DNA of 46,714 bases, from the IMG/VR virus record IMGVR_UViG_2671180847_000008, one strand, 5' to 3'. The notes under the pieces were generated by a model, which was not told the origin of the DNA, did no database searches, and saw nothing but the letters and a program-made list of their open reading frames with translations. The first letter of the stretch is position 1, and the number at the start of each line of letters is the position of its first letter. Made by a program: the position numbers and the translations under genes. The stretch is from a virus. Taxonomy: Duplodnaviria; Heunggongvirae; Uroviricota; Caudoviricetes. Positions 1 to 26,861 of the stretch are shown piece after piece.

Positions 1-708
1 ATGTGGGTCAATAAGTATATTGACGATTGCACTGATGAGGATTTAAACGATCGTGACTTTATTGCATCAGTTGTTGACCGGGCTATTTTTCATTTCGCGA
101 TTAATAGTATATGTAATCCTGGGGATAATAAAGATGCAATGCCCATTGAACAATGTACTTTTGATGTAGAAACTAAGAATGACCTTCCCTCCACGGTTCA
201 GCTATTTTATGAGGAATCTAAGGATAATGAACCTTTAGCGAATATACATTTTCAAGCAATAGGTTCTGGTTTTTTAACGTTTGTTAATGCCTGCCAGGAA
301 CATGATGACAACAGCTTAAAATTATTTGCTTCGCTGTTAATTTCACTTTCATATTCTAGTGCCTACGCAGATTTATCAGAAACAGTGTATATTAATGAAA
401 ATAATGAGAGCTACCTGAAAGCTCAGTTTGAAAAATTATCTCAACGTGATATGAAGAAGTACCTGGGAGAGATGAAGCGTCTGGCTGATGGGGGAGAAAT
501 GAATTTTGATGGCTATCTGGATAAGATGTCACATCTGGTGAATGAAGGAACGCTCGATCCTGATATTTTAAGCAAAATGCGAGATGCTGCACCACAATTA
601 ATTAGCTTCGCGAAGTCGTTTGACCCAACCTCAAAGGAAGAGATTAAAATACTTACAGACACTTCTAAATTAATTTATGATTTGTTCGGGGTTAAATCGG
701 AGAAATAA
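1..708 (+). CDS. yjbM: Host hypothetical protein, YjbM-like (235 aa); may be complete, begins at window edge
   Basis: Single long ORF directly upstream of the dusA promoter region, the position yjbM occupies in E. coli K-12; identity recalled from memory, not searched. AT-rich. Confidence 0.5.
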   Translation: MWVNKYIDDCTDEDLNDRDFIASVVDRAIFHFAINSICNPGDNKDAMPIEQCTFDVETKNDLPSTVQLFYEESKDNEPLANIHFQAIGSGFLTFVNACQEHDDNSLKLFASLLISLSYSSAYADLSETVYINENNESYLKAQFEKLSQRDMKKYLGEMKRLADGGEMNFDGYLDKMSHLVNEGTLDPDILSKMRDAAPQLISFAKSFDPTSKEEIKILTDTSKLIYDLFGVKSEK

Positions 709-2590: not shown

Positions 2591-3163
2591 TCATAATTCT
2601 GTGCTGGTGGCAGGAATTAATTTCTGCCAGATAGCGGAAACATATTTTGCCTGATGACGGGCATCAGCCAGGGCGTTGTGCCGTTCGCCATCGAAAGGCA
2701 TGTCCATTTTGGGGTCGAATCCGATGGAACGCCCAAGCGTAACGATCGTGCGTACATCGTGGTCATTCCAGTACGCCCACGGGCAGATTTGTCCTGCTCG
2801 CTCATAAGCTCCACGTAAAATTACGTTGTCGAAGGTGGCCCCGTTACCCCAGACTTTTAAATATTTCGTATTGTCTGCGTGCCGGTTAATGAAATGGTTT
2901 AGTTCTGAGAGAGCATCGCTGATCGACAAAGTATCATCAATACAGATTGCAGCTCGCGCTTCAGGGCTTTGTTTCAACCACCACAGGATGGTATCGCCGT
3001 CAGGTGTAGCTCCTTGCTTCATAGCACTGTCCAGGCTGACAACCGCATAAAATTCTTGTCCGATGTCTCCGGTTTCTGGAGTGAAGAACACCGCGCCAAT
3101 GGAAACGATCGGTGCATCCTTATTTTTCCCCATCGTCTCAAGGTCGATCATTAAGTTGTTCAT
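2591..3163 (-). CDS. DnaQ-like 3'-5' exonuclease
   Basis: Start MNNLMIDLETMG with RBS GGAGG; DLET and HNAL-D motifs of DEDDh exonucleases; start overlaps the upstream stop (TGATG). Confidence 0.8.
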   Translation of the reverse strand: MNNLMIDLETMGKNKDAPIVSIGAVFFTPETGDIGQEFYAVVSLDSAMKQGATPDGDTILWWLKQSPEARAAICIDDTLSISDALSELNHFINRHADNTKYLKVWGNGATFDNVILRGAYERAGQICPWAYWNDHDVRTIVTLGRSIGFDPKMDMPFDGERHNALADARHQAKYVSAIWQKLIPATSTEL

Positions 3164-3885
3164 CACTTCACCTCCTGCGGCGGTTCCGGTAGCGGCATCC
3201 AATTGATTACATCGCATTCAGGGATGCTGATATCATCACCAAGCCATCCTTGACCTTCAGACCAGCATTGCACGTAATACCCGTATTCTGTGTTCACTAC
3301 GCACCACTGCCCGTCATCCGGCATTCGCTCACTACAGCTTATCCAACTATCCGGAGTTACCGGAGAGTTGCCATTTACATCGAAGTTTGGCTCTGCGTCC
3401 TGAACCAGGAGGATGTAACCATTCTTGGCAGTATCAAGTTCTAACGCCTCGGTGACGGTGCCGAAATAGCGATTACCTAAATCAGCATCACAAGTGCTTA
3501 CATCAATGGAAACTTCCATGCCTTCGATTAATTCTGGCAAGTTGTAAGTTTGGTTTACAGGTTGGCCTCCCTGAAGCATGGCGGCGCGGTGACACCAGAT
3601 AATCCAGCCAAGCGCCATATCCCATGCCATGTATTCTCTATCACCATTTTTTGCCCTGCGGCGATCTACAGATTCCCCGAAACGCTTCTCCATAAATAAT
3701 TCATAGGCTGCCCGTTCATCCGATACTGCTGCCAGCGATGCCAGTGCAATTTTAAATGCGGTAAGTATGTTGTTAACCACACCTATTTCGAATGCTATTT
3801 CACTACATACAAACGATTTATCGTCTATTATCGACTCAATTCCGGTAATCGTGTTCTGTAACCATTCTTTGGTAAGAGTATTCAT
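3163..3885 (-). CDS. Early-left hypothetical protein with DUF551-like C-terminus
   Basis: 240-aa ORF; RBS AAGGTG; C-terminal W-rich motif DGQWCVV...WMPLPEPP. Confidence 0.7.
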   Translation of the reverse strand: MNTLTKEWLQNTITGIESIIDDKSFVCSEIAFEIGVVNNILTAFKIALASLAAVSDERAAYELFMEKRFGESVDRRRAKNGDREYMAWDMALGWIIWCHRAAMLQGGQPVNQTYNLPELIEGMEVSIDVSTCDADLGNRYFGTVTEALELDTAKNGYILLVQDAEPNFDVNGNSPVTPDSWISCSERMPDDGQWCVVNTEYGYYVQCWSEGQGWLGDDISIPECDVINWMPLPEPPQEVK

Positions 3886-17041: not shown

Positions 17042-18094
17042 ATGAAAAATACTGTAAAAATAAACAGTGTTGATTTAATCAACGCTGATTGCCTGCATTT
17101 TATTCAGTCCCTGCCTGATGATTCCATTGACCTGATTGTTACCGATCCGCCGTACTTCAAGGTGAAACCCAACGGCTGGGACAATCAGTGGAAAGGGGAC
17201 GAAGATTACCTTAAGTGGCTGGACCACTGTCTGGCCCAGTTCTGGCGGGTGTTAAAACCTGCCGGAAGCCTTTACCTGTTCTGTGGGCATCGCCTGGCAT
17301 CTGATATTGAGATCATGATGCGCGAACGTTTCAACGTGCTTAACCATATCATCTGGGCGAAGCCGTCCGGACGTTGGAATGGGTGTAATAAAGAAAGTCT
17401 GCGCGCATATTTTCCTGCCACAGAGCGCGTTCTGTTTGCTGAACATTACCAGGGGCCATATCGCGGCAAAAGTGACGGCTATGCGGCAAAAGAAAGGGAA
17501 CTCAAACAGCACATAATGGCACCGCTGATATCGTATTTCAGGGATGCTCGTGCCGCACTGGGTATAACGGCAAAACAAATTGCCGAAGCCACAGGTAAGA
17601 AAAATATGGTTTCCCACTGGTTTGGTGCCAGTCAGTGGCAGTTGCCGAATGAGGCTGACTATCGGAAGTTACAGGCACTGTTTTCCCGTATAGCGGCAGA
17701 GAAGTTTCAGGAACAACAACTGGAACAACCACACCACCAGCTGGTGGCATCTTATGATTCACTGAATCGTAAATATTCTGAATTGCTGGATGAGTTTAAA
17801 TCTCTCCGGCGTTATTTCTCCGTATCAGTCTCCGTGCCTTATACCGATGTCTGGATGCATAAACCCGTTCAGTTCTACCCGGGTAAACATCCGTGTGAGA
17901 AACCGGCGGATATGCTCAGGCAAATAATCAATGCCAGTAGTCGACCTGGTGATCTGGTTGCTGATTTTTTTATGGGATCCGGTTCCACAATAAAAGCAGC
18001 AATGGCGCTGGGGCGTCGGGCCTTAGGTGTTGAGCTTGAGTCAGAGCGGTTTAACCAGACAGTGAAAGAGATAAACGAGCTGGTGGGGAAATAA
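17042..18094 (+). CDS. Orphan DNA methyltransferase (N6-adenine or N4-cytosine class)
   Basis: DPPY motif (VTDPPYF) and AdoMet-binding FxGxG (FFMGSGST); no adjacent endonuclease gene. Confidence 0.85.
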
Positions 18095-19329: not shown

Positions 19330-19763
19330 GCAGAGTCGCCGCGATTATTTATGCTTTGGTTATCTGCATCATCGTCTGCCTGTCGTGGGCGGTCAATCAT
19401 TACCGTGATAACGCCATCGCCTACAAAGAACAGCGTGATAAAGCCACATCCATCATCGCTGATATGCAGAAGCGTCAACGTGATGTAGCAGAACTCGACG
19501 CCAGATACACAAAGGAGCTTGCTGATGCTAACGCGACTATCGAAAGTCTCCGTGCTGATGTTTCTGCTGGGCGTAAGCGCCTGCAAGTCGCCGCCACCTG
19601 TGCAAAGTCAACGACCAGAGCCAGCGGCATGGGCGATGGAGAAAGCCCAAGACTTACAGCAGATGCTGAACTCAATTATTACCGTCTCCGAAGCGGAATC
19701 GACAGGATAACCGCGCAGGTTAACTACCTGCAGGAATACATCAGGACGCAATGCCTTCGATGA
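19326..19763 (+). CDS. Rz i-spanin
   Basis: GTG start overlapping the endolysin stop (GTGA); N-terminal TM helix then coiled coil. Confidence 0.8.
19525..19710 (+). CDS. Rz1 o-spanin lipoprotein, embedded in Rz in the +1 frame
   Basis: RBS AAAGGAG; signal peptide with lipobox LLGVSAC; proline-rich mature part; entirely inside Rz. Confidence 0.75.
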
Positions 19764-19936
19764 TAGCGATAATTTTACTCATCATCCTTCACATCTGGCT
19801 CTGTAGACAGGGTGGTGATCACTTCTGGAGTGAATCCAGATTAAACATCTCATTGCTGATGCTTGAAGTTGAGCATCTGGCGCGCGGTAAGGGGCTGCGT
19901 TGAAATAAGAGCCAGTCATTAAAAATACCTGGATTT

Positions 19937-19961
19937 AGCCTCGCATTCGCGGGGCTTTTTA
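19937..19961 (+). terminator. Terminator after the lysis cassette
   Basis: AGCCTCGC-ATTC-GCGGGGCT hairpin followed by TTTTT; a second hairpin lies at 19973-19998. Confidence 0.55.
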
Positions 19962-20389
19962 TTGCCATTACAAAAGCCACTCCCTACAGAGTGGCTTTGA
20001 TAATGACTTATACCCTACACGGGATAACTTAACTGATATCCCTTTTAACGGATAAAGGTATTCAAGCCTGACACATCATGCGCTGTATCGTCGCCGTATT
20101 CCCGTATTAACAGAGACCGTAGCCCGACGGGGAACTCCTTCTGCGAGAGTGTGCGGGAATAATCAAAAACGATGCACACCGGGTTTTTACCGCGTTTATG
20201 GTTCGCGGGTTTGTCCCTCATGCTCGCCAGTCCTGTGCGGGGGTGGAAGAAACAGGATACTCACACAGATTCTTGTGGGCACGATGCTATTCCTTTCTGG
20301 ATTATCCCGATGCCATTCATGCAAGGCGCTGTATCAGACGTTCGTCATGGCTGTCAGGCTGACGGGTCCTCCCGGTGGGGTGGCCTGCC

Positions 20390-20409
20390 ACGGGGCGGGA
20401 GCGTCGCGG
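20390..20409. other. Candidate cosN (cohesive-end site)
   Basis: ACG-GGGCGGGAGCGT-CGCGG versus lambda ACG-GGGCGGCGACCT-CGCGG (recalled from memory); 186 bp upstream of the Nu1-like start (191 bp in lambda). Confidence 0.6.
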
Positions 20410-20578
20410 AAAAAGGCTAGTTTTTGCATTTTTATCGGCCACCATCATCTTTGCATCTTATTGATTATTAATGGTTATTTGTTTTTTGTATGTCGAATTG
20501 AGCGGTTTTTGTTCGACATCGAACGCGTTTTCTTAAAGTTGTTCGCACGATGCATGTTTAAAGCTCTCCGGAGGAAAT

Positions 20579-21070
20579 ATGGATCATGAGTTGAAAAACC
20601 TGGTGCTGAATATTAATCAACTGGCGGCTTTATCTGGTCTGCACCGCCAGACTGTCGTGGCAAGACTGAAAAACATTCGTCCCGCTGGTGGACATGACAA
20701 ACTCAAGCTATATCGGTTGACCGATATTCTGACTGAATTTATGGGGTTACCACCGCCGGTTGCTGAGGGCGAAATGGATCCACATGAACGCAAAGCCTGG
20801 TATCAGTCTGAACGTGAGCGTCTTAAGTTCGAACAGGAAACGGCACAACTCATTCCGGCCAGTGATGTCAGACGGGAGTTTGCCATCTGGGCAAAAGCGG
20901 TCGTGCAGGTGCTGGAGACATTACCGGATATTCTGGAACGTGACTGCGGCCTGCAGCCTGCCGCTGTGAGCCGTGTTCAGTCCATTATTGATGATCTGCG
21001 CGATCAGATAGCCCTGCGGGTGACCGAAGCAGGTGCGGATGATGAGGAGGAATTACAGCAGGAGGAGTAA
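20579..21070 (+). CDS. Terminase small subunit (Nu1-like)
   Basis: N-terminal HTH (NINQLAALSGLHRQTV); RBS GGAGG; directly precedes the large subunit. Confidence 0.8.
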   Translation: MDHELKNLVLNINQLAALSGLHRQTVVARLKNIRPAGGHDKLKLYRLTDILTEFMGLPPPVAEGEMDPHERKAWYQSERERLKFEQETAQLIPASDVRREFAIWAKAVVQVLETLPDILERDCGLQPAAVSRVQSIIDDLRDQIALRVTEAGADDEEELQQEE

Positions 21071-23172
21071 TGCTGAATCAGGAAACCGCAAAGGCAGCAC
21101 GAACCGATTCAGGTTATATCCTTCGCGCACCGAGACGAATGCTGGTTGCTGATGCCGTTGCTCAGTATATGCGGGTGCCCATGGGGGCCGGGAATTCAGT
21201 CCCGTGGGATCCGCTGGTGGCACCGTATGTTATTGAGCCGATGAACTGCCTGGCCTCGCGTGAATACGACGCAGTGATATTTGTTGGCCCGGCACGAACT
21301 GGCAAGACTATCGGCCTGATTGACGGCTGGGTGATTTACAATGTGATTTGCGATCCTGCTGATATGCTGATCATTCAGATGACGGAGGAAAAAGCCCGCG
21401 AACACTCCAAAAAACGACTTGCCAGAACGTTTCGCGTCAGCCCGGAAGTGGTCAGTCGCCTGAGTCCGAACAAAAATGACAACAACGTTTATGACAGAAC
21501 ATTCCTTGCTGGCAACTACCTGAAAATCGGCTGGCCGTCAGTCAATATCATGTCCTCATCAGATTATAAATGCGTGGCGCTGACGGATTATGACCGTTTT
21601 CCGGAAGATATTGATGGCGAGGGGGATGCCTTCTCTCTTGCCTCAAAACGTACCACCACATTTATGTCCAGTGGTATGACGCTGGTGGAGAGTTCCCCCG
21701 GCAGGGATGTGAAGGATGTGAAATGGCGACGGACTTCACCGCATGAGGCTCCACCAACCACGGGGATACTGTCGCTCTATAACCGTGGCGATCGCCGTCG
21801 CTGGTACTGGCCCTGTCCACACTGTGGTGAGTATTTTCAGCCCTGCGGCGATGTGGTTGCTGGTTTCCGTGATATTGCCGATCCCGTGCTGGCAAGTGAG
21901 GCGGCTTATATTCAGTGTCCTTCCTGTTCAGGACGGATTATGCCTGAACAAAAACGTGAGCTGAACGGACGTGGGGTCTGGTTGCGGGATGGTGAATCCA
22001 TCAATGCGGATGGCAGTCGTTATGGTGATCCCCGACGCTCACGTATTGCGTCATTCTGGATGGAGGGGCCGGCAGCTGCTTACCAGACACTCTCGCAACT
22101 CGTTTACAAACTGCTTACTGCAGAACAGGAATACGAGACAACCGGAAGTGAAGAAACACTCAAGACGGTTATCAATACCGACTGGGGATTACCTTATCTT
22201 CCCCGTGCCAGCATGGAGCAACGAAAAAGTGAACTGCTTGAGCAGCGGGCAGAGCCAGTTCCTTCCCGCAGTGTGCCGGATGGCGTTAATTTTCTTGTGG
22301 CGACAGTGGATGTGCAGGCGGGACGTCATCGCCGTTTTGTGGTTCAGGTAACGGGCTATGGCAGCCGTGGCGAACGCTGGATTATTGATCGTTACAACAT
22401 CACGCAGTCATTGCGCGGTGACAGCGACGGTGAGAGCCAGCGAATTGATCCGGCCAGCTATCCGGAAGACTGGGATGTCCTGCTGACGGATGTTTTTCAT
22501 AAAAGCTGGCCGCTGGCCTCCGATCCTTCTCAACAAATGCGACTGATGGCAATGGCGGTGGACTCCGGCGGTGAAGACGGGGTCACTGATAATGCCTATA
22601 AATTCTGGCGTCGTTGCCGTCGTGATGGCCTTGGTAAACGTATTTACCTGTTTAAGGGCGACAGCATCCGGCGCGCAAAACTGATCACCCGTACATTCCC
22701 TGATAACACCGGACGAACGGGCCGACGGGCGCAGGCCGCAGGTGATGTGCCGCTCTGGCTTCTTCAGACGGATGCACTGAAAGACCGGGTGAATAACGCG
22801 TTATGGCGTGACTCGCCAGGTCCCGGCTATGTGCATTTCCCTGACTGGCTGGGGAGCTGGTTTTACGACGAACTGACGTATGAAGAGCGGAGCAGTGACG
22901 GGAAATGGAGTAAGCCGGGTCGCGGTGCCAACGAAGCTTTTGACCTGATGGTGTATGCCGAGGCTCTGGTCATTCTGCATGGATACGAAAAGATCCGCTG
23001 GCCGGATGCACCGGAGTGGGCGAGCCGGGAAACCTGGCTGGAGTGTGTCCCGGACAGTACCGAACCGTCACCCTCACCGGAACCGGTATCCACGCCTGTT
23101 AAAAAACAAAAACGGAAGAAAACAGTAACTGACGATGTTAACCCCTGGCTGACTTCCGGAGGATGGTTATGA
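21070..23172 (+). CDS. Terminase large subunit (lambda gpA family)
   Basis: Walker A GPARTGKT; Cys/His cluster CPHCGEYF like lambda gpA CPHCGEE; 700 aa. Confidence 0.9.
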   Translation: MLNQETAKAARTDSGYILRAPRRMLVADAVAQYMRVPMGAGNSVPWDPLVAPYVIEPMNCLASREYDAVIFVGPARTGKTIGLIDGWVIYNVICDPADMLIIQMTEEKAREHSKKRLARTFRVSPEVVSRLSPNKNDNNVYDRTFLAGNYLKIGWPSVNIMSSSDYKCVALTDYDRFPEDIDGEGDAFSLASKRTTTFMSSGMTLVESSPGRDVKDVKWRRTSPHEAPPTTGILSLYNRGDRRRWYWPCPHCGEYFQPCGDVVAGFRDIADPVLASEAAYIQCPSCSGRIMPEQKRELNGRGVWLRDGESINADGSRYGDPRRSRIASFWMEGPAAAYQTLSQLVYKLLTAEQEYETTGSEETLKTVINTDWGLPYLPRASMEQRKSELLEQRAEPVPSRSVPDGVNFLVATVDVQAGRHRRFVVQVTGYGSRGERWIIDRYNITQSLRGDSDGESQRIDPASYPEDWDVLLTDVFHKSWPLASDPSQQMRLMAMAVDSGGEDGVTDNAYKFWRRCRRDGLGKRIYLFKGDSIRRAKLITRTFPDNTGRTGRRAQAAGDVPLWLLQTDALKDRVNNALWRDSPGPGYVHFPDWLGSWFYDELTYEERSSDGKWSKPGRGANEAFDLMVYAEALVILHGYEKIRWPDAPEWASRETWLECVPDSTEPSPSPEPVSTPVKKQKRKKTVTDDVNPWLTSGGWL

Positions 23173-23381: not shown

Positions 23382-24889
23382 TGGCAATTCTTGATGATGT
23401 GATTGGCGTTTTTTCACCAGGATGGAAAGCGGCAAGGCTGCGTTCCCGTGCGGTGATCCAGGCTTATGAGGCCGTAAAAACGACGCGGACACACAAAGCC
23501 CGGCGGGAAAACCGAACTGCCGACCAGTTAAGCCAGTACGGGGCCGTGTCGTTACGTGAGCAGGCCCGTTACCTTGATAACAACCACGATCTGGTTATTG
23601 GTGTATTTGACAAGCTGGAAGAACGGGTGGTGGGGAAAAACGGGATTATTGTCGAGCCACATCCGGTATTACGCAATGGGGCCATTGCCCGTGACCTGGC
23701 TGCGGAGATTCGCACCCGATGGAGTGAATGGTCTGTCAGCCCGGAAGTCACCGGGCAGTTTACCCGTCCGATGCTGGAACGTCTGATGCTGCGTACCTGG
23801 CTGCGCGATGGTGAGGTGTTTGCCCAGATGGTTTCCGGGCGCATAAACAGCCTGGCGCCTTCTGCCGGTGTTCATTTCTGGCTGGAGGCGCTCGAGCCGG
23901 ACTTTATTCCCATGACCAGTGATGAGAGCAACAGGCTGAATCAGGGCGTGTTTGTTGATGACTGGGGGCGTCCCGAAAAATATCTGGTGTATAAAAGCCG
24001 TCCCGTATCCGGACGGCAGATGGAAACCAAAGAAGTGGATGCAGAGCGAATGCTGCATCTTAAATTTGTTCGCCGTCTGCACCAGATGCGCGGGACGTCT
24101 TTATTGTCCGGTGTGCTGATCCGCCTCAGTGCCCTGAAAGAATATGAAGATTCTGAGCTGACTGCAGCAAGGATCGCCGCTGCTCTGGGGATGTACATCC
24201 GCAAAGGCGACGGACAGAGCTATGAACCGGATGGTAATGGCAGAAAGGAGAATGAACGTGAGCTTACCATTCAGCCAGGCATTATTTACGACGATCTGAA
24301 ACCCGGCGAAGAAATCGGAATGGTGAAGTCGGATCGCCCCAATCCTAATCTTGAAACTTTTCGTAATGGTCAGTTGCGTGCCGTGGCGGCGGGCAGTCGT
24401 CTGAGTTTTTCCAGTACGGCACGCAACTATAACGGCACTTACAGCGCCCAGCGTCAGGAACTGGTTGAGTCTACTGATGGCTACCTGATCCTGCAGGACT
24501 GGTTTATTGGTGCCGTCACCCGCCCGATGTATCGTGCCTGGCTGAAACAGGCTGTGGCATCCGGTGTTATCAGGCTACCCCGCGATCTTGACCGTTCTTC
24601 ACTGTATACCGCGGTGTATTCCGGACCGGTGATGCCGTGGATTGACCCTGTTAAGGAGGCTGAGGCCTGGAAAATCCAGATTCGTGGTGGAGCGGCGACA
24701 GAATCAGACTGGGTACGTGCTGGTGGTCGTAATCCGGATGATGTCAAACGTCGGCGCAAGGCCGAAATTGATGAAAACCGCAAGCTGGATCTGGTATTTG
24801 ATACCGATCCAGCCAGTGATAAAGGAGGCAGCAGTGCCGCAACGAAACGACAGGATCCGCAGCACACCGACGACCAGTCCGAAGAATAA
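23381..24889 (+). CDS. Portal protein
   Basis: About 500 aa, between W and the capsid gene; TGATG overlap with W. Confidence 0.85.
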   Translation: MAILDDVIGVFSPGWKAARLRSRAVIQAYEAVKTTRTHKARRENRTADQLSQYGAVSLREQARYLDNNHDLVIGVFDKLEERVVGKNGIIVEPHPVLRNGAIARDLAAEIRTRWSEWSVSPEVTGQFTRPMLERLMLRTWLRDGEVFAQMVSGRINSLAPSAGVHFWLEALEPDFIPMTSDESNRLNQGVFVDDWGRPEKYLVYKSRPVSGRQMETKEVDAERMLHLKFVRRLHQMRGTSLLSGVLIRLSALKEYEDSELTAARIAAALGMYIRKGDGQSYEPDGNGRKENERELTIQPGIIYDDLKPGEEIGMVKSDRPNPNLETFRNGQLRAVAAGSRLSFSSTARNYNGTYSAQRQELVESTDGYLILQDWFIGAVTRPMYRAWLKQAVASGVIRLPRDLDRSSLYTAVYSGPVMPWIDPVKEAEAWKIQIRGGAATESDWVRAGGRNPDDVKRRRKAEIDENRKLDLVFDTDPASDKGGSSAATKRQDPQHTDDQSEE

Positions 24890-24902
24890 TTCCTGGTTCA
24901 GG

Positions 24903-26861
24903 ATGCAGGCTGGTCACCAGAGTGACGCGGATATTTATATTTATGACGAGATTGGTTTCTGGGGTGTTACAGCGAAGCAGTTTATCAGTGATCTGAATGC
25001 ACTGGGCGATATCACCCACATTAATCTCCATATTAATTCACCGGGTGGCGATGTCTTTGAAGGCATCGCCATTTTTAATGCGCTGAAAACACATGGTGCG
25101 TCCATTACCGTTTATGTCGACGGTGTGGCGGCGTCAATGGCGTCGGTCATTGCGATGGTGGGAAACCCGGTCATTATGCCGGAAAACACCTTCATGATGA
25201 TTCATAAACCATTTGGCTTTACGGGCGGTGATGCGGAGGACATGCGCACCTATGCCGACCTGCTCGATAAGGTTGAGGCGGTTCTGTTACCCGCTTATGC
25301 ACAGAAAACCGGGAAAACCACCGATGAAATTGCTGCCATGCTGGCGGATGAGACCTGGATGTCAGGTGCCGAATGTCTGGAACATGGATTTGCTGATCAG
25401 GTAACGCCAGCCGTTAAGGCAATGGCATGTATTCAGTCAAAACGTACAGAGGAATTTAAAAAGATGCCGGAATCCATTCGAAACATGATTACTCCGCCAC
25501 GCAACAGTGCTCCACGCGTACAGGATGATGAACCTGCTGCCTCCCGGACGCCAGTGCAGGCAGCAGCACCCGTGGTGGATGAAAACAGTATCCGTGCGCA
25601 GGTACTGGCAGAGCAAAAAGCGCGTGTAAACGGTATTAATGATCTGTTTGCCATGTTTGGCGGGCGTTATCAGACGCTGCAGGCTCAGTGTCTTGCCGAT
25701 CCTGAATGTTCGCTGGAGCAGGCCCGCGAAAAGCTGTTGAACGAGATGGGGCGCGAGTCCACGCCATCCAATAAAAATACCCCGGCTCATATTTATGCCG
25801 GTAACGGTAATTTTGTGGGGGACGGGATCCGCCAGGCGCTGATGGCGCGTGCCGGATTTGAAAAACCCGAACGTGATAATGTCTACAACGGGATGACCCT
25901 GCGTGAATATGCCCGTATGTCACTGACTGAACGGGGTATTGGGGTTTCCGGTTATAACCCGATGCAGATGGTCGGTGCGGCGTTCACACACAGTACGTCT
26001 GACTTCGGTAATATTCTGCTGGATGTTGCGAACAAAGCCATTCTGCAGGGCTGGGAAGATGCCCCTGAAACCTATGAACAGTGGACGCGGAAAGGTCAGT
26101 TGTCTGATTTTAAAATTGCCCATCGTGTGGGTATGGGGGGCTTCAGTGCTCTGCGTCAGGTGCGTGAAGGGGCGGAATATAAATACGTCACCACCGGAGA
26201 TAAACAGGCCACTATTGCACTGGCGACCTATGGCGAGCTGTTCAGTATCACCCGTCAGGCCATTATCAATGATGATCTGAATATGCTGACCGATGTCCCG
26301 ATGAAACTGGGCCGTGCGGCGAAATCCACTATTGCCGATCTGGTTTATGCCATTCTGACGTCTAACCCGAAAATCTCCACAGATAATGTAAGTCTGTTCG
26401 ATAAAGCGAAACATGCAAACGTACTGGAGAGCGCTGCAATGGACGTGGCATCGCTGGATAAAGCCCGCCAGTTGATGCGCGTTCAGAAAGAGGGGGAGCG
26501 TCATCTGAATATTCGTCCTGCGTTCGTACTGGTACCGACGGCGATGGAGTCTGTTGCTAACCAGGTCATTCGCTCCTCAAGTGTCAAGGGGGCTGACATT
26601 AACGCCGGTATTATTAACCCGGTGAAAGATTTTGCGACCGTTATTGCAGAGCCTCGTCTTGATGATAACAGCCAGACCACTTTCTACCTGGCTGCGTCCA
26701 AAGGCTCCGATACGATTGAAGTGGCTTATCTCAACGGTGTGGATACGCCATATATTGATCAGATGGAGGGCTTCAGTGTGGATGGCGTGACAACGAAAGT
26801 GCGTATTGACGCCGGTGTCGCGCCAGTTGATCACCGCGGTCTGGTGAAATGTACGGCGTAA
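24903..26861 (+). CDS. Prohead protease (ClpP/S49-like) - scaffold - major capsid protein fusion
   Basis: N-terminal serine-protease region (INSPGGDVFEGIAIFNAL, VAASMASVIAMVG); central coiled-coil; large C-terminal capsid-sized domain; single 652-aa ORF. Confidence 0.8.
   Translation: MQAGHQSDADIYIYDEIGFWGVTAKQFISDLNALGDITHINLHINSPGGDVFEGIAIFNALKTHGASITVYVDGVAASMASVIAMVGNPVIMPENTFMMIHKPFGFTGGDAEDMRTYADLLDKVEAVLLPAYAQKTGKTTDEIAAMLADETWMSGAECLEHGFADQVTPAVKAMACIQSKRTEEFKKMPESIRNMITPPRNSAPRVQDDEPAASRTPVQAAAPVVDENSIRAQVLAEQKARVNGINDLFAMFGGRYQTLQAQCLADPECSLEQAREKLLNEMGRESTPSNKNTPAHIYAGNGNFVGDGIRQALMARAGFEKPERDNVYNGMTLREYARMSLTERGIGVSGYNPMQMVGAAFTHSTSDFGNILLDVANKAILQGWEDAPETYEQWTRKGQLSDFKIAHRVGMGGFSALRQVREGAEYKYVTTGDKQATIALATYGELFSITRQAIINDDLNMLTDVPMKLGRAAKSTIADLVYAILTSNPKISTDNVSLFDKAKHANVLESAAMDVASLDKARQLMRVQKEGERHLNIRPAFVLVPTAMESVANQVIRSSSVKGADINAGIINPVKDFATVIAEPRLDDNSQTTFYLAASKGSDTIEVAYLNGVDTPYIDQMEGFSVDGVTTKVRIDAGVAPVDHRGLVKCTA

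Follow-up and report, generated by a model that had tools for sequence, protein, structure and literature searches.

The cosB segments of lambda, phi80, 21 and Gifsy-1 have a published order and orientation of R3-I1-R2(inverted)-R1 (PMC9026076), Gifsy-1 being listed among the lambda-like cos phages with this arrangement (PMC4669245, PMC9026076). R3 occupies bp 50-65 in lambda and bp 48-59 in N15 (PMC9026076, PMC4669245), the latter having a 'simple cosB' (PMC4669245). In the cohesive end itself, the half formed by bp 7-12 is naturally variable (PMC4669245), ends down to 7 nt are known, and the distant phage Cr-LKS3, which has a small terminase subunit (TerS) of the DUF1441 type, has experimentally determined 5' cohesive ends that start with GGGC (PMC9303873). 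Here we compare these systems with a 46,714-nt stretch of viral DNA (the window; IMG/VR record IMGVR_UViG_2671180847_000008), in which positions 20364-20578 are very probably a complete lambda-type cos packaging site (cosQ, cosN and cosB) of an mEp460-like lambdoid prophage that, judged by its sequence, most likely functions in the style of lambda. This E. coli prophage is lambda-like and intact, and its cos is of an ordinary, already known type.

In lambda, cosQ is the signal for termination of packaging. The window carries the same heptamer, GGGTCCT, at 20364..20370 on the + strand (context ACGGGTCCTCCCGGTG; ACGGGTCCTTTCCGGTG in lambda), and both heptamer and flanks are identical to the lambda comparison sequence (ACGGGTCCT..CCGGTG). 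Lying in the interval of ~20-25 bp upstream of cosN, it is separated by 22 bp from the nick predicted in the top strand, 1 bp less than in lambda (23 bp). Among 66 close relatives this cosQ is nearly invariant and the sequence to its left has diverged in many, and in about half of the more distant relatives GGTACTCC replaces the heptamer. The lambda-like cosQ had been overlooked in the first-pass annotation of this DNA.

The adjoining cosN spans 20391..20406 and contains the predicted 12-nt 5' end GGGCGGGAGCGT at 20393-20404 (bp 1-12), with a CG at each side. We infer that the top strand is nicked after 20392 and the bottom strand between 20404 and 20405, and the length and polarity of the overhang are predicted in the same way. 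The 12-mer is identical to that of lambda (GGGCGGCGACCT) at 8 of 12 positions; bp 1-6 are the same and bp 7, 8, 9 and 11 differ, three of these four (bp 8, 9 and 11) being the positions at which the cosN of Gifsy-1 also differs from lambda, and bp 7-12 vary among the relatives analyzed here as well. The flanks of cosN (...ACG and CGCGG...) are identical to those of lambda, and the CG pair that flanks both lambda nicks is spaced by exactly 12 bp in the window and in most relatives. Rotational symmetry extends to 8 of 16 bp, compared with 10 of 16 in lambda. A 20-mer with four mismatches to lambda (ACGGGGCGGGAGCGTCGCGG, 20390-20409) was equalled in one of 30 shuffles of the whole window searched on both strands; in a single sequence, neither this 20-mer nor the inverted repeat described below is convincing alone, and their weight comes from their position and from conservation in relatives. 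The best-conserved cos block across genera is the right flank of cosN, CGCGGAAAAAGGCTAGTTTTT (bp 13-33; 20405..20425, + strand), which is similar to lambda CGCGGGTTTTCGCTATTT, lies upstream of the TerS gene in 55 of the 64 related sequences examined, and is retained in phage cdtI and in the related loci L041 and L045 despite their differing TerS and R sites. This block is probably part of the region in which the large terminase subunit recognizes cosN. In addition, the deposited records of cdtI (AB285204) and Tritos (OV696610, linear) open with GGGCGGGAGCGT and close with ...CTGCCACG, and the window junction ...CTGCCACG|GGGCGGGAGCGTCGCGG... thus corresponds to the last and first bases of both, split at window base 20393; these record starts may be measured ends or may have been placed by analogy. 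The break in the cdtI and Tritos records supports the lambda-like cosN that the first-pass annotation had proposed.

Its prediction of lambda-type packaging likewise agrees with the placement of cosQ and with the genes downstream of cos, where the order of TerS, a large terminase subunit (TerL) of the gpA family, a gpW-like protein and a lambda-family portal forms a packaging module of the lambda type. TerL (700 aa; 21070..23172, + strand), which combines ATPase and endonuclease, matches the Pfam models GpA_ATPase (8.5e-72) and GpA_nuclease (1.1e-85), both at full length, and shares 25% identity with lambda gpA (E=6e-19). The TerS gene (163 aa; 20579..21070, + strand) is directly upstream, its stop codon overlapping the TerL start, with cosN in turn lying in the range of ~90-190 bp upstream of TerS. 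The first-pass annotation had described this small subunit as Nu1-like, a description that does not fit at the level of family: the only Pfam match of TerS is DUF1441 (4.6e-44), whereas lambda Nu1 matches Phage_Nu1 (PF07471) at 2.5e-100, and BLASTP of TerS against Nu1 detected no similarity. Assignment of TerS to Phage_Nu1 was rejected, as that family model is unmatched. TerS belongs to phrog_141 ('terminase small subunit', 2.7e-77), and at the level of profiles a relationship to Nu1 is apparent from reciprocal PHROG cross-matches (8e-9 for TerS to phrog_57 of Nu1, and 5.6e-8) and from an hhalign comparison in which the helix-turn-helix (HTH) is aligned (E=1.3e-4). TerS is a DUF1441 protein of the Gifsy type and, as seen in profile comparisons only, a remote homologue of Nu1. 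An AlphaFold2 model built from an alignment (pLDDT 80.7) has the order strand-helix-helix-strand-strand-helix, and the model from the single sequence is poor (pLDDT 53). The Nu1 structure was not among the results of a fold search with TerS, the PDB sequences searched with phmmer yielded no more than a marginal HTH match, and NCBIfam had no model for TerS or TerL.

The distance between cosN and TerS had been given as 186 bp, the same as in lambda. The interval from 20393 to the ATG at 20579 is indeed 186 bp, but that of lambda is 190 bp, so the two are similar rather than equal, and because the distance is ~129 bp in most relatives, the likeness to lambda is a coincidence of subtype and not a conserved quantity.

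Within this interval, cosB has three related R sequences in the lambda order, with R2 inverted. A candidate TerS site resembling R3, GCCACCATCATCTT (bp 46-59; 20438..20451, + strand), occupies the position of R3 in lambda and N15. It is followed, in an A/T-rich stretch between R3 and R2, by a sequence like the IHF consensus, AATCAATAAGATG (the equivalent of I1, bp 62-74; 20454..20466, - strand), with one mismatch to WATCAANNNNTTR; this is the only match in cosB with at most one mismatch, and judged from the window by itself it falls short of significance (P=0.22). Of 53 related loci, 38 have their best IHF match on this strand at bp 60-64, and a perfect match somewhere in bp 55-100 is present in 12 loci. 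An inverted R2-like sequence, GTATGTCGAATT (bp 96-107; 20488..20499, - strand; reverse complement AATTCGACATAC), and a direct R1-like sequence, TTGTTCGACATCGA (bp 117-130; 20509..20522, + strand), include the left (ATGTCGAA, 20490-97) and right (TTCGACAT, 20512-19) arms, respectively, of a perfect inverted repeat with a 14-nt spacer. At the R2 place, TCGACATC is found on the minus strand at bp 96-100 in ~30 Enterobacterales relatives, conservation across the ATGTCGAA columns being mostly 0.9-1.0 (0.7 in a single column) and that of the spacers adjoining R2 averaging 0.53-0.64, and at the R1 place relatives have GTTCA(C/T)CATCAT at bp 120-126 on the + strand. The motif TCRNCATC is located at bp 44-52 (+), 96-100 (-) and 120-126 (+) in ~30 relatives, and the window has it at bp 47/50 (+), 97 (-) and 121 (+). 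Since the R3 of the window (CCACCATCATC) only weakly resembles its own R1/R2 core (TTCGACATC), the link between them is made through the family consensus; every relative with the HRQT recognition helix has, on the + strand, (T)CATCATCAT(C) across bp 44-59. Over 37 distinct loci from different species, mean conservation was 0.81 for cosQ, 0.89 for bp 13-33, and 0.80, 0.85 and 0.86 for R3, R2 and R1, compared with 0.53-0.66 for the spacers, all of these measures being inflated by relatedness among the loci.

Between R1 and the ATG lies a further conserved block, TTAAAGTTGTTCGCACGATGCATGTTTAAA (20533..20562, + strand), which lambda does not have and which is specific to the subtype with 186-bp spacing. 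It is nearly invariant in this subtype and in a sister group (87% TerS identity) and absent from the relatives with 129-bp spacing, whose R1 abuts the ATG. Apart from TTGTTCG, the block agrees poorly with the R consensus; it may represent a degenerate fourth copy of the R1 type or what remains of an ancestral junction between R1 and the ATG, and it could act as a fourth terminase site or as a regulator of TerS expression. A promoter scan of 19700-20700 found no promoter.

Comparison across the family suggests which protein recognizes these sequences. Relatives with helices other than HRQT have a different triplet repeat at the R3 place (GTGCAGCAGCA, GGCGGCGGCA or GCAGCAGCAGCA), and within a given phage the R copies change in concert, tracking also the recognition helix of TerS (HRQT, NRN(M/L)V, HRDT or GRNT). 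For example, the R3/R2/R1 copies are TCAGCACTGAA / TTCGACACTGAA / TTCGACACTGAA in Gifsy-2 and TCATCACCA / TCGACACC / TCATCACTA in locus L006, and L041 and L045 have CGTGCAGCA at both R3 and R1 with an inverted R2 of CAGCA and GCAGCA, respectively. This co-variation supports the R sequences as putative binding sites of the small terminase. A more speculative extension, which we regard as possible but doubtful, is that the DUF1441 TerS family embodies a natural 'recognition code' for cosB in which the trinucleotide unit of R3 switches with the recognition helix; HRQT may pair with (CAT)n, NRN(M/L)V and GRNT with (CAG)n, and HRDT with either (GGC)n or (CAG)n. If true, the packaging specificity of these very common prophages would be predictable from sequence, and swaps of cosB and TerS on a constant cosN, as between the window and cdtI, would define cross-packaging and satellite mobilization. 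The family covers both the tripartite cosB, in Enterobacterales, and an R3-only cosB, in Pasteurellaceae.

The arrangement of these elements can be matched to several described phages. With lambda, the window shares the approximate position of R3 and the succession of candidate IHF site, inverted R2 and direct R1, and R2 and R1 of lambda also form an inverted pair, but the R sequences themselves are unrelated, those of the window (TTCRNCATCAT) being shorter than the lambda type (CGTTTCCTTTCT), and R2 and R1 are separated by ~23 bp rather than 42 bp. Gifsy-2 has a DUF1441 TerS 48% identical to that of the window, R3, R2 and R1 at the same bp, and a 12-bp inverted repeat where the window has one of 8 bp; the head modules of Gifsy-1 and Gifsy-2 contain the same protease-capsid fusion as the window. 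The Gifsy-2 R2 place reads TTCAGTGTCGAA, and its R1, at bp 121, is the reverse complement of its R2 and identical to its R3 at 9 of 12 positions. Gifsy-2 differs from the window in R sequence (TCGACACTGAA versus TCGACATC), in its cohesive end, in carrying GGTACTCC instead of the cosQ heptamer, and in the distance from cosN to the start codon (167 bp). The group of mEp213 and LLS (predicted end GGGCGGCGCGCT) has a DUF1441 TerS with the HRQT helix (62-63% identical) and resembles the window in both the sequence type and the positions of R3, R2 and R1 (PMC12315714), but its cosN-ATG distance is 129 bp, its R1 overlaps the start codon, and the right half of its cohesive end differs. Finally, cdtI and Tritos have an identical cosQ-cosN junction and 12-mer, nearly identical bp 1-33, and head and tail genes that are ~97% identical to those of the window, and yet their TerS (helix HRDTVKKR) is only 42% identical and their cosB diverges from ~bp 35, with GGCGGCGGCA at the R3 place and no ATGTCGAA/TTCGACAT pair. 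These differences in TerS and cosB imply that an identical cosN serves a packaging specificity distinct from that of the window.

The first-pass annotation had suggested that the inverted repeat could be a binding site of the small subunit. When the 174-bp cosB was shuffled with its dinucleotides preserved, 12% of the shuffled sequences contained a perfect inverted repeat of at least 8 bp (P ~0.12), which is not significant alone, and a generic search for the best inverted repeat in each relative was too noisy except for lambda, Gifsy-2 and the window; analyses of motif position and conservation were therefore used. The repeat arms coincide with the places of the inverted R2 and the direct R1 in Gifsy-2 and in ~35 relatives drawn from many species of Enterobacterales, which agrees with the suggestion and supports the repeat as the core of an R2/R1 pair, two of three conserved putative small-terminase sites. 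That only the R3-like site matters, the R2- and R1-like copies being dispensable or inherited, would make this cosB functionally like that of N15, which has a Nu1-type TerS and requires R3 alone, R1 being accessory even in lambda (PMC4669245). Besides the chance level of the repeat alone, this reading could draw on Pasteurellaceae relatives that have an HRQT helix and an R3-like site (CATCATCATC) with no R2 or R1, and on the sister group, in which the right arm is TTCATCAC and the perfect palindrome is lost. We nevertheless consider it unlikely, because R2 and R1 are conserved above the spacers across many Enterobacterales genera and change together with R3 in Gifsy-2, L006, L010, L013, L041 and L045, behavior not expected of neutral sequence; the cosB of the window appears complex and tripartite. 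The repeat might instead form a hairpin, in late mRNA or single-stranded DNA, that serves as a terminator, an attenuator or a regulator of TerS translation. A consensus scan made a weak terminator-like call at 20510-20525 (TGTTCG-ACAT-CGAACG followed by CGTTTTCTT), and the arm changes in Gifsy-2 (GTGTCGAA/TTCGACAC) look compensatory, but RNA of 20480-20535 is not predicted to fold better than shuffled sequences (z = -1.15; 25 of 200 fold as well), Rfam gave no family at the gathering score, the sister group is without the 6-bp stem, and a hairpin leaves unexplained the third, direct copy at the R3 place that co-varies with the arms. The probability of this reading is very small.

Acceptance of the R2/R1 pair leaves the cut itself to be considered, since the site might be cleaved with an overhang other than 12 nt or with nicks elsewhere, lambda-like relatives being able to carry shorter ends. 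Cr-LKS3, for example, has 9-nt 5' ends and a TerS of the DUF1441 type (PMC9303873), and in some relatives of the window the left junction differs (CACCGAGGGGGCG...), making the register ambiguous there. Against this, the two CGs that flank the lambda nicks recur at a spacing of exactly 12 bp in the window and in most of its relatives, window base 20393 corresponds to the first base of the cdtI and Tritos records, and the closely related LLS and mEp213 have been annotated with a 12-nt end, also inferred, by specialists in lambda packaging (PMC12315714); a different cut is accordingly given little credence. The Tritos paper does not discuss the genome ends, and a literature search with the 12-mer returned only an unrelated paper on a eukaryotic promoter. 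None of the viral and metagenome contigs searched opened exactly at the predicted nick, a result that is uninformative rather than negative because most of these contigs are prophage or bulk metagenome. Least credible of all is that cos is the relic of a defective prophage or that packaging is of the headful (pac) type. The window can be aligned with complete phage genomes from 1157 to 45406: in its first 24 kb, 82% is covered by PhiR40_1 and PhiR55_1 at 98.1% identity and 72% by mEp460, the values for the remainder being 73-77% (at 97.0% identity) and 84%, respectively. PhiR40_1, PhiR47_1 and PhiR55_1 share 99.3% identity with the window in the cos region and 100% in TerS; these phages form plaques and have been employed in infection assays (as PhiR40.1, PhiR47.1 and PhiR55.1; bioRxiv 10.1101/2025.11.03.685801). 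Moreover, all packaging proteins of the window are full length, and the gpA-family TerL, cosQ and cosN are conserved. To our knowledge, headful phages lack all three of these features.

From the observed elements, their conservation and co-variation, the protein families and the exact match to the termini of the cdtI and Tritos records, a route of packaging can be proposed. Dimers of TerS, through an N-terminal winged HTH, would bind R3 (bp 46-59), the inverted R2 (bp 96-107) and R1 (bp 117-130), and host IHF would bend the A/T-rich DNA between R3 and R2. This would anchor the gpA-type large subunit on cosN, where the large subunit would cut the top strand after 20392 and the bottom strand 12 bp further along, yielding 5' overhangs of GGGCGGGAGCGT; after rejoining of the cohesive ends, the junction would read ...CCACGGGGCGGGAGCGTCGCGG.... 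Packaging would presumably run rightward into the head genes and stop at the next cos, where the cosQ heptamer GGGTCCT would be required.

As this mechanism is that of textbook lambda and involves no new biology, the locus is of importance mainly for annotation. Exact coordinates of cos and the R sites would give the true ends of the virion genome and predict which lambdoid prophages have a common packaging specificity, which bears on cross-packaging, on mobilization of cos satellites (PICI) and on cosmid-type tools. Of 5426 complete E. coli genomes, 2168 (~40%) contain this cos region in some form. Several deposited phage genomes have no marked cos; the records of mEp460 and Ayreon were opened inside cosB, and in the PhiR40_1 record a CDS annotated as 'hypothetical protein' spans cos.

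Judged from its sequence, the element at 20380-20578 is an ordinary cos of lambda type, belongs to the Gifsy/mEp460 kind and lies in a lambdoid prophage of E. coli. The first-pass annotation was correct in calling it a lambda-type cos, as seen directly in the sequence anatomy, the family-wide conservation and co-variation, the protein families encoded nearby and the identity to the deposited ends of phages cdtI and Tritos. The 20-mer ACGGGGCGGGAGCGTCGCGG at 20390-20409 falls in the lambda register (...CCACG/GGGCGGGAGCGT/CGCGG...), which places the putative cohesive end at 20393-20404 (bp 1 of cos being 20393). This 12-mer is identical to that of lambda (GGGCGGCGACCT) at 8 of 12 positions, with bp 1-6 the same and changes at bp 7, 8, 9 and 11, and the dinucleotides beside both nick positions are also those of lambda; among 30 window shuffles, one produced a 20-mer equally close to lambda. 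A lambda-like cosQ (ACGGGTCCTCCCGGTG versus ACGGGTCCTTTCCGGTG in lambda), unmentioned in the first-pass annotation, lies 22 bp upstream of cosN. The GenBank records of cdtI (AB285204) and Tritos (OV696610, linear) begin with GGGCGGGAGCGTCGCGGAAAAAGGCTAG and end with ...CTGCCACG, exactly matching the window junction at 20392/20393, and a 12-nt 5' cohesive end, inferred with the help of lambda-packaging specialists, is annotated at the homologous place of the related phage LLS (PMC12315714). For Feiss and co-workers, a phage is 'lambda-like' if its 12-base 5' ends resemble those of lambda, and they noted natural variation at bp 7-12 and none in the flanking CG dinucleotides or cosQ (PMC4669245); the window, like the 30 different 12-mers at the cohesive-end place among relatives, fits this pattern. 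The experimentally determined 5' ends of Cr-LKS3, a distant phage with a DUF1441-type small terminase subunit (TerS), start with GGGC (PMC9303873). We found no measured DNA ends for the window phage or any identical cos, and the nick positions and 12-nt 5' overhang are predicted. At the cosQ place, ~27-30 bp to the left of where the nick is predicted, GGTACTCC replaces GGGTCCT in ~24 of 53 relatives (loci L009-L058); cosQ has been described in the literature as having no apparent natural variation.

Downstream of cosN, the perfect inverted repeat ATGTCGAA (20490-20497)/TTCGACAT (20512-20519), with a 14-nt spacer, had been proposed as a small-subunit binding site. When the 174-bp cosB was dinucleotide-shuffled, 12% of the shuffles contained a perfect inverted repeat of at least 8 bp; because such signals are weak when taken alone, the case rests on context and comparison. 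We compared 66 loci encoding TerS relatives (one genome per species), 80 close relatives (viral contigs) and Gifsy-2, with the conserved right flank of cosN as the anchor. The relatives have a common plan: cosQ, a spacer of ~22 bp, cosN, a strongly conserved block CGCGG(R)AAAMGGCTAGTTTTT (bp 13-33), a (T)CATCATCAT element (bp 44-59, plus strand), an A/T-rich stretch with a TTGAT core, GATGTCGAA (bp 96-106; TTCGACATC on the minus strand) and GTTCA(C/T)CATCAT (bp 118-130, plus strand). Since the three elements of the window sit at the plan positions (bp 47-57, plus; 97-104, minus; 121-128, plus), the two arms of the repeat are the cores of R2-like and R1-like sites. The window R3, CCACCATCATC, bears only a weak resemblance to the R1/R2 core of the window (TTCGACATC) and is linked to it through the family consensus. 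This order and orientation is the R3-I1-R2-R1 arrangement, with R2 inverted, published for lambda, 21, phi80 and Gifsy-1 (PMC9026076), and a repeat search run here likewise recovers lambda R2/R1 as a 16-bp inverted pair. Between R3 and R2, AATCAATAAGATG (20454-20466, bp 62-74, minus strand) is the sole cosB match to the IHF consensus WATCAANNNNTTR with at most one mismatch. In this sequence alone the match is not significant (P=0.22); the best match of 38 of 53 relatives lies at that place and strand, and IHF binding is predicted.

Mean conservation across 37 distinct loci, inflated because the loci are related, was 0.81 for cosQ, 0.63 for the cosQ-cosN spacer, 0.89 for bp 13-33, 0.80 for R3, 0.70 for I1 (bp 60-76), 0.53 for bp 77-95, 0.85 for R2, 0.64 for bp 107-117 and 0.86 for R1. 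The bp 13-33 block (CGCGGAAAAAGGCTAGTTTTT, 20405-20425) is thus the most conserved part of cos across genera, above the cohesive end; it also persists in loci with a different TerS and different R sites, which suggests contact with the large subunit or a host factor rather than the small subunit.

The three R copies change together within one phage. Gifsy-2 carries TCAGCACTGAA (R3), TTCGACACTGAA (R2, inverted) and TTCGACACTGAA (R1) at window-equivalent positions, forming a 12-bp inverted repeat, and the variants in L006, L010 and L013 match among R copies. Two loci, L041 and L045, encode the recognition helix NRN(M/L)VARR, not HRQTV; in both, CGTGCAGCA occupies the R3 and R1 places, and the R2 place holds, inverted, CAGCA and GCAGCA, respectively. 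In cdtI and its relatives, whose helix is HRDTVKKR, the R3 place holds GGCGGCGGCA. Because the direct third copy co-varies with both arms and with the protein helix, the comparison argues for protein-binding sites, not an RNA hairpin, the fold of which was no better than that of shuffles (z = -1.15). TerS binding at the R sites is a prediction; comparison supports the proposed small-subunit site, its arms corresponding to the conserved R2/R1 places. A small terminator-like stem at 20510-20525 is not preserved in the sister group (87% TerS identity). More broadly, R3 consists of a short trinucleotide repeat, and the repeated unit shifts with the recognition helix (loci L005-L069, Gifsy-2 and cdtI): (CAT)n with HRQT, GTG(CAG)n with NRN(M/L)V, (GGC)n or (CAG)n with HRDT..KKR, and (CAG)n with GRNTV. 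Pasteurellaceae loci (L040-L057, upstream of position 1201; Pasteurella, Haemophilus, Mannheimia, Actinobacillus, Rodentibacter) have an HRQTV helix and an R3-like CATCATCATC at bp 44-56 and lack R2/R1 copies, an arrangement like the 'simple cosB' of N15 inside the DUF1441 family. These helix-tracking repeats and the R3-only cosB, together with GGTACTCC at the cosQ place, may be worth the notice of specialists.

The small subunit, described earlier as Nu1-like, matches Pfam DUF1441 and not Phage_Nu1, and BLASTP found no match to Nu1. Nevertheless, TerS matches phrog_57, the PHROG of Nu1, at 8e-9 and Nu1 matches phrog_141 at 5.6e-8, both nearly full length, and an hhalign comparison of 21 aligned family sequences with Nu1 (E=1.3e-4) pairs LNINQLAALSGLHRQTVVARL...GGHDKLKLY with VNKKQLADIFGASIRTIQNWQ...GGKGNEVLY, the helix-turn-helix and wing. 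An AlphaFold2 model (38 homologues, pLDDT 80.7) has an N-terminal strand-helix-helix-strand-strand-helix domain followed by long helices. By these profile matches, TerS appears to be a remote homologue of Nu1 outside the Nu1 family. The claim of the same spacing as in lambda holds only as a similarity: the distance from 20393 to the TerS ATG (20579) is 186 bp versus 190 in lambda, a coincidence given that it is ~129 bp in most relatives, where R1 overlaps the start codon, and ~88-133 bp in Pasteurellaceae relatives. The window subtype has ~57 extra bp after R1, including a block, TTAAAGTTGTTCGCACGATGCATGTTTAAA (20533-20562), that lies between R1 and the ribosome-binding site of TerS, hardly varies within this subtype and its sister group and is absent in relatives with 129-bp spacing; it has TTGTTCG in common with R1 and looks like an R1-plus-ATG junction (AAAAGTGTTCACCATCATG).

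Lysis genes lie upstream of cos, and the genes downstream form a packaging module: the 163-aa TerS (PHROG 141 'terminase small subunit'), a 700-aa gpA-family large terminase with full-length GpA_ATPase and GpA_nuclease, a 72-aa gpW-like head-tail adaptor, a lambda-family portal and, in one long ORF (24642-26861; CLP_protease and Phage_capsid_4), a ClpP-protease/capsid fusion like the prohead protease-major capsid fusion described for Gifsy-2-type heads. Window positions 1157-45406 can be aligned to the complete genomes of phages. Over the first 24 kb, PhiR40_1 and PhiR55_1 account for 82% of the sequence (98.1% identity), and over the remainder for 73-77% (97.0%); the corresponding coverage by mEp460 is 72% and 84%. 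The cos region is 99.3% and TerS 100% identical in PhiR40_1, PhiR47_1 and PhiR55_1, which serve in infection assays (bioRxiv 10.1101/2025.11.03.685801); this near-identity makes it very probable that the module is functional. Of 5426 complete E. coli genomes, 2168 contain some version of the cos region.

The similarity shared with cdtI, Tritos and many E. coli prophages stops just before R2 (mosaic junction at ~20487/20488), and that of many close relatives starts abruptly at cosQ, with the junction left of 20364; cosQ-cosN therefore moves as a unit, recombined with differing cosB/TerS modules and upstream DNA. The records of mEp460 (JQ182728/NC_019716) and Ayreon (MF807953) were opened inside cosB, ~25 bp ahead of the TerS gene, which leaves one part of cos at each end of the record. 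In PhiR40_1 (PV340560; positions 2985-3290 of its locus, L152), a 'hypothetical protein' CDS, probably spurious, is annotated across cosQ-cosN-cosB and corresponds to the mechanical window ORFs 20149-20589 and 20172-20420. Between the lysis genes and cos, in a ~630-bp stretch without a convincing gene, lies a good intrinsic-terminator-like hairpin (19937-19956, plus strand; AGCCTCGC-ATTC-GCGGGGCT, then TTTTATT). Just upstream of the lysis cassette is a gene for a 350-aa DNA methyltransferase (17042-18094), annotated in PhiR40_1 as DNA adenine methylase.
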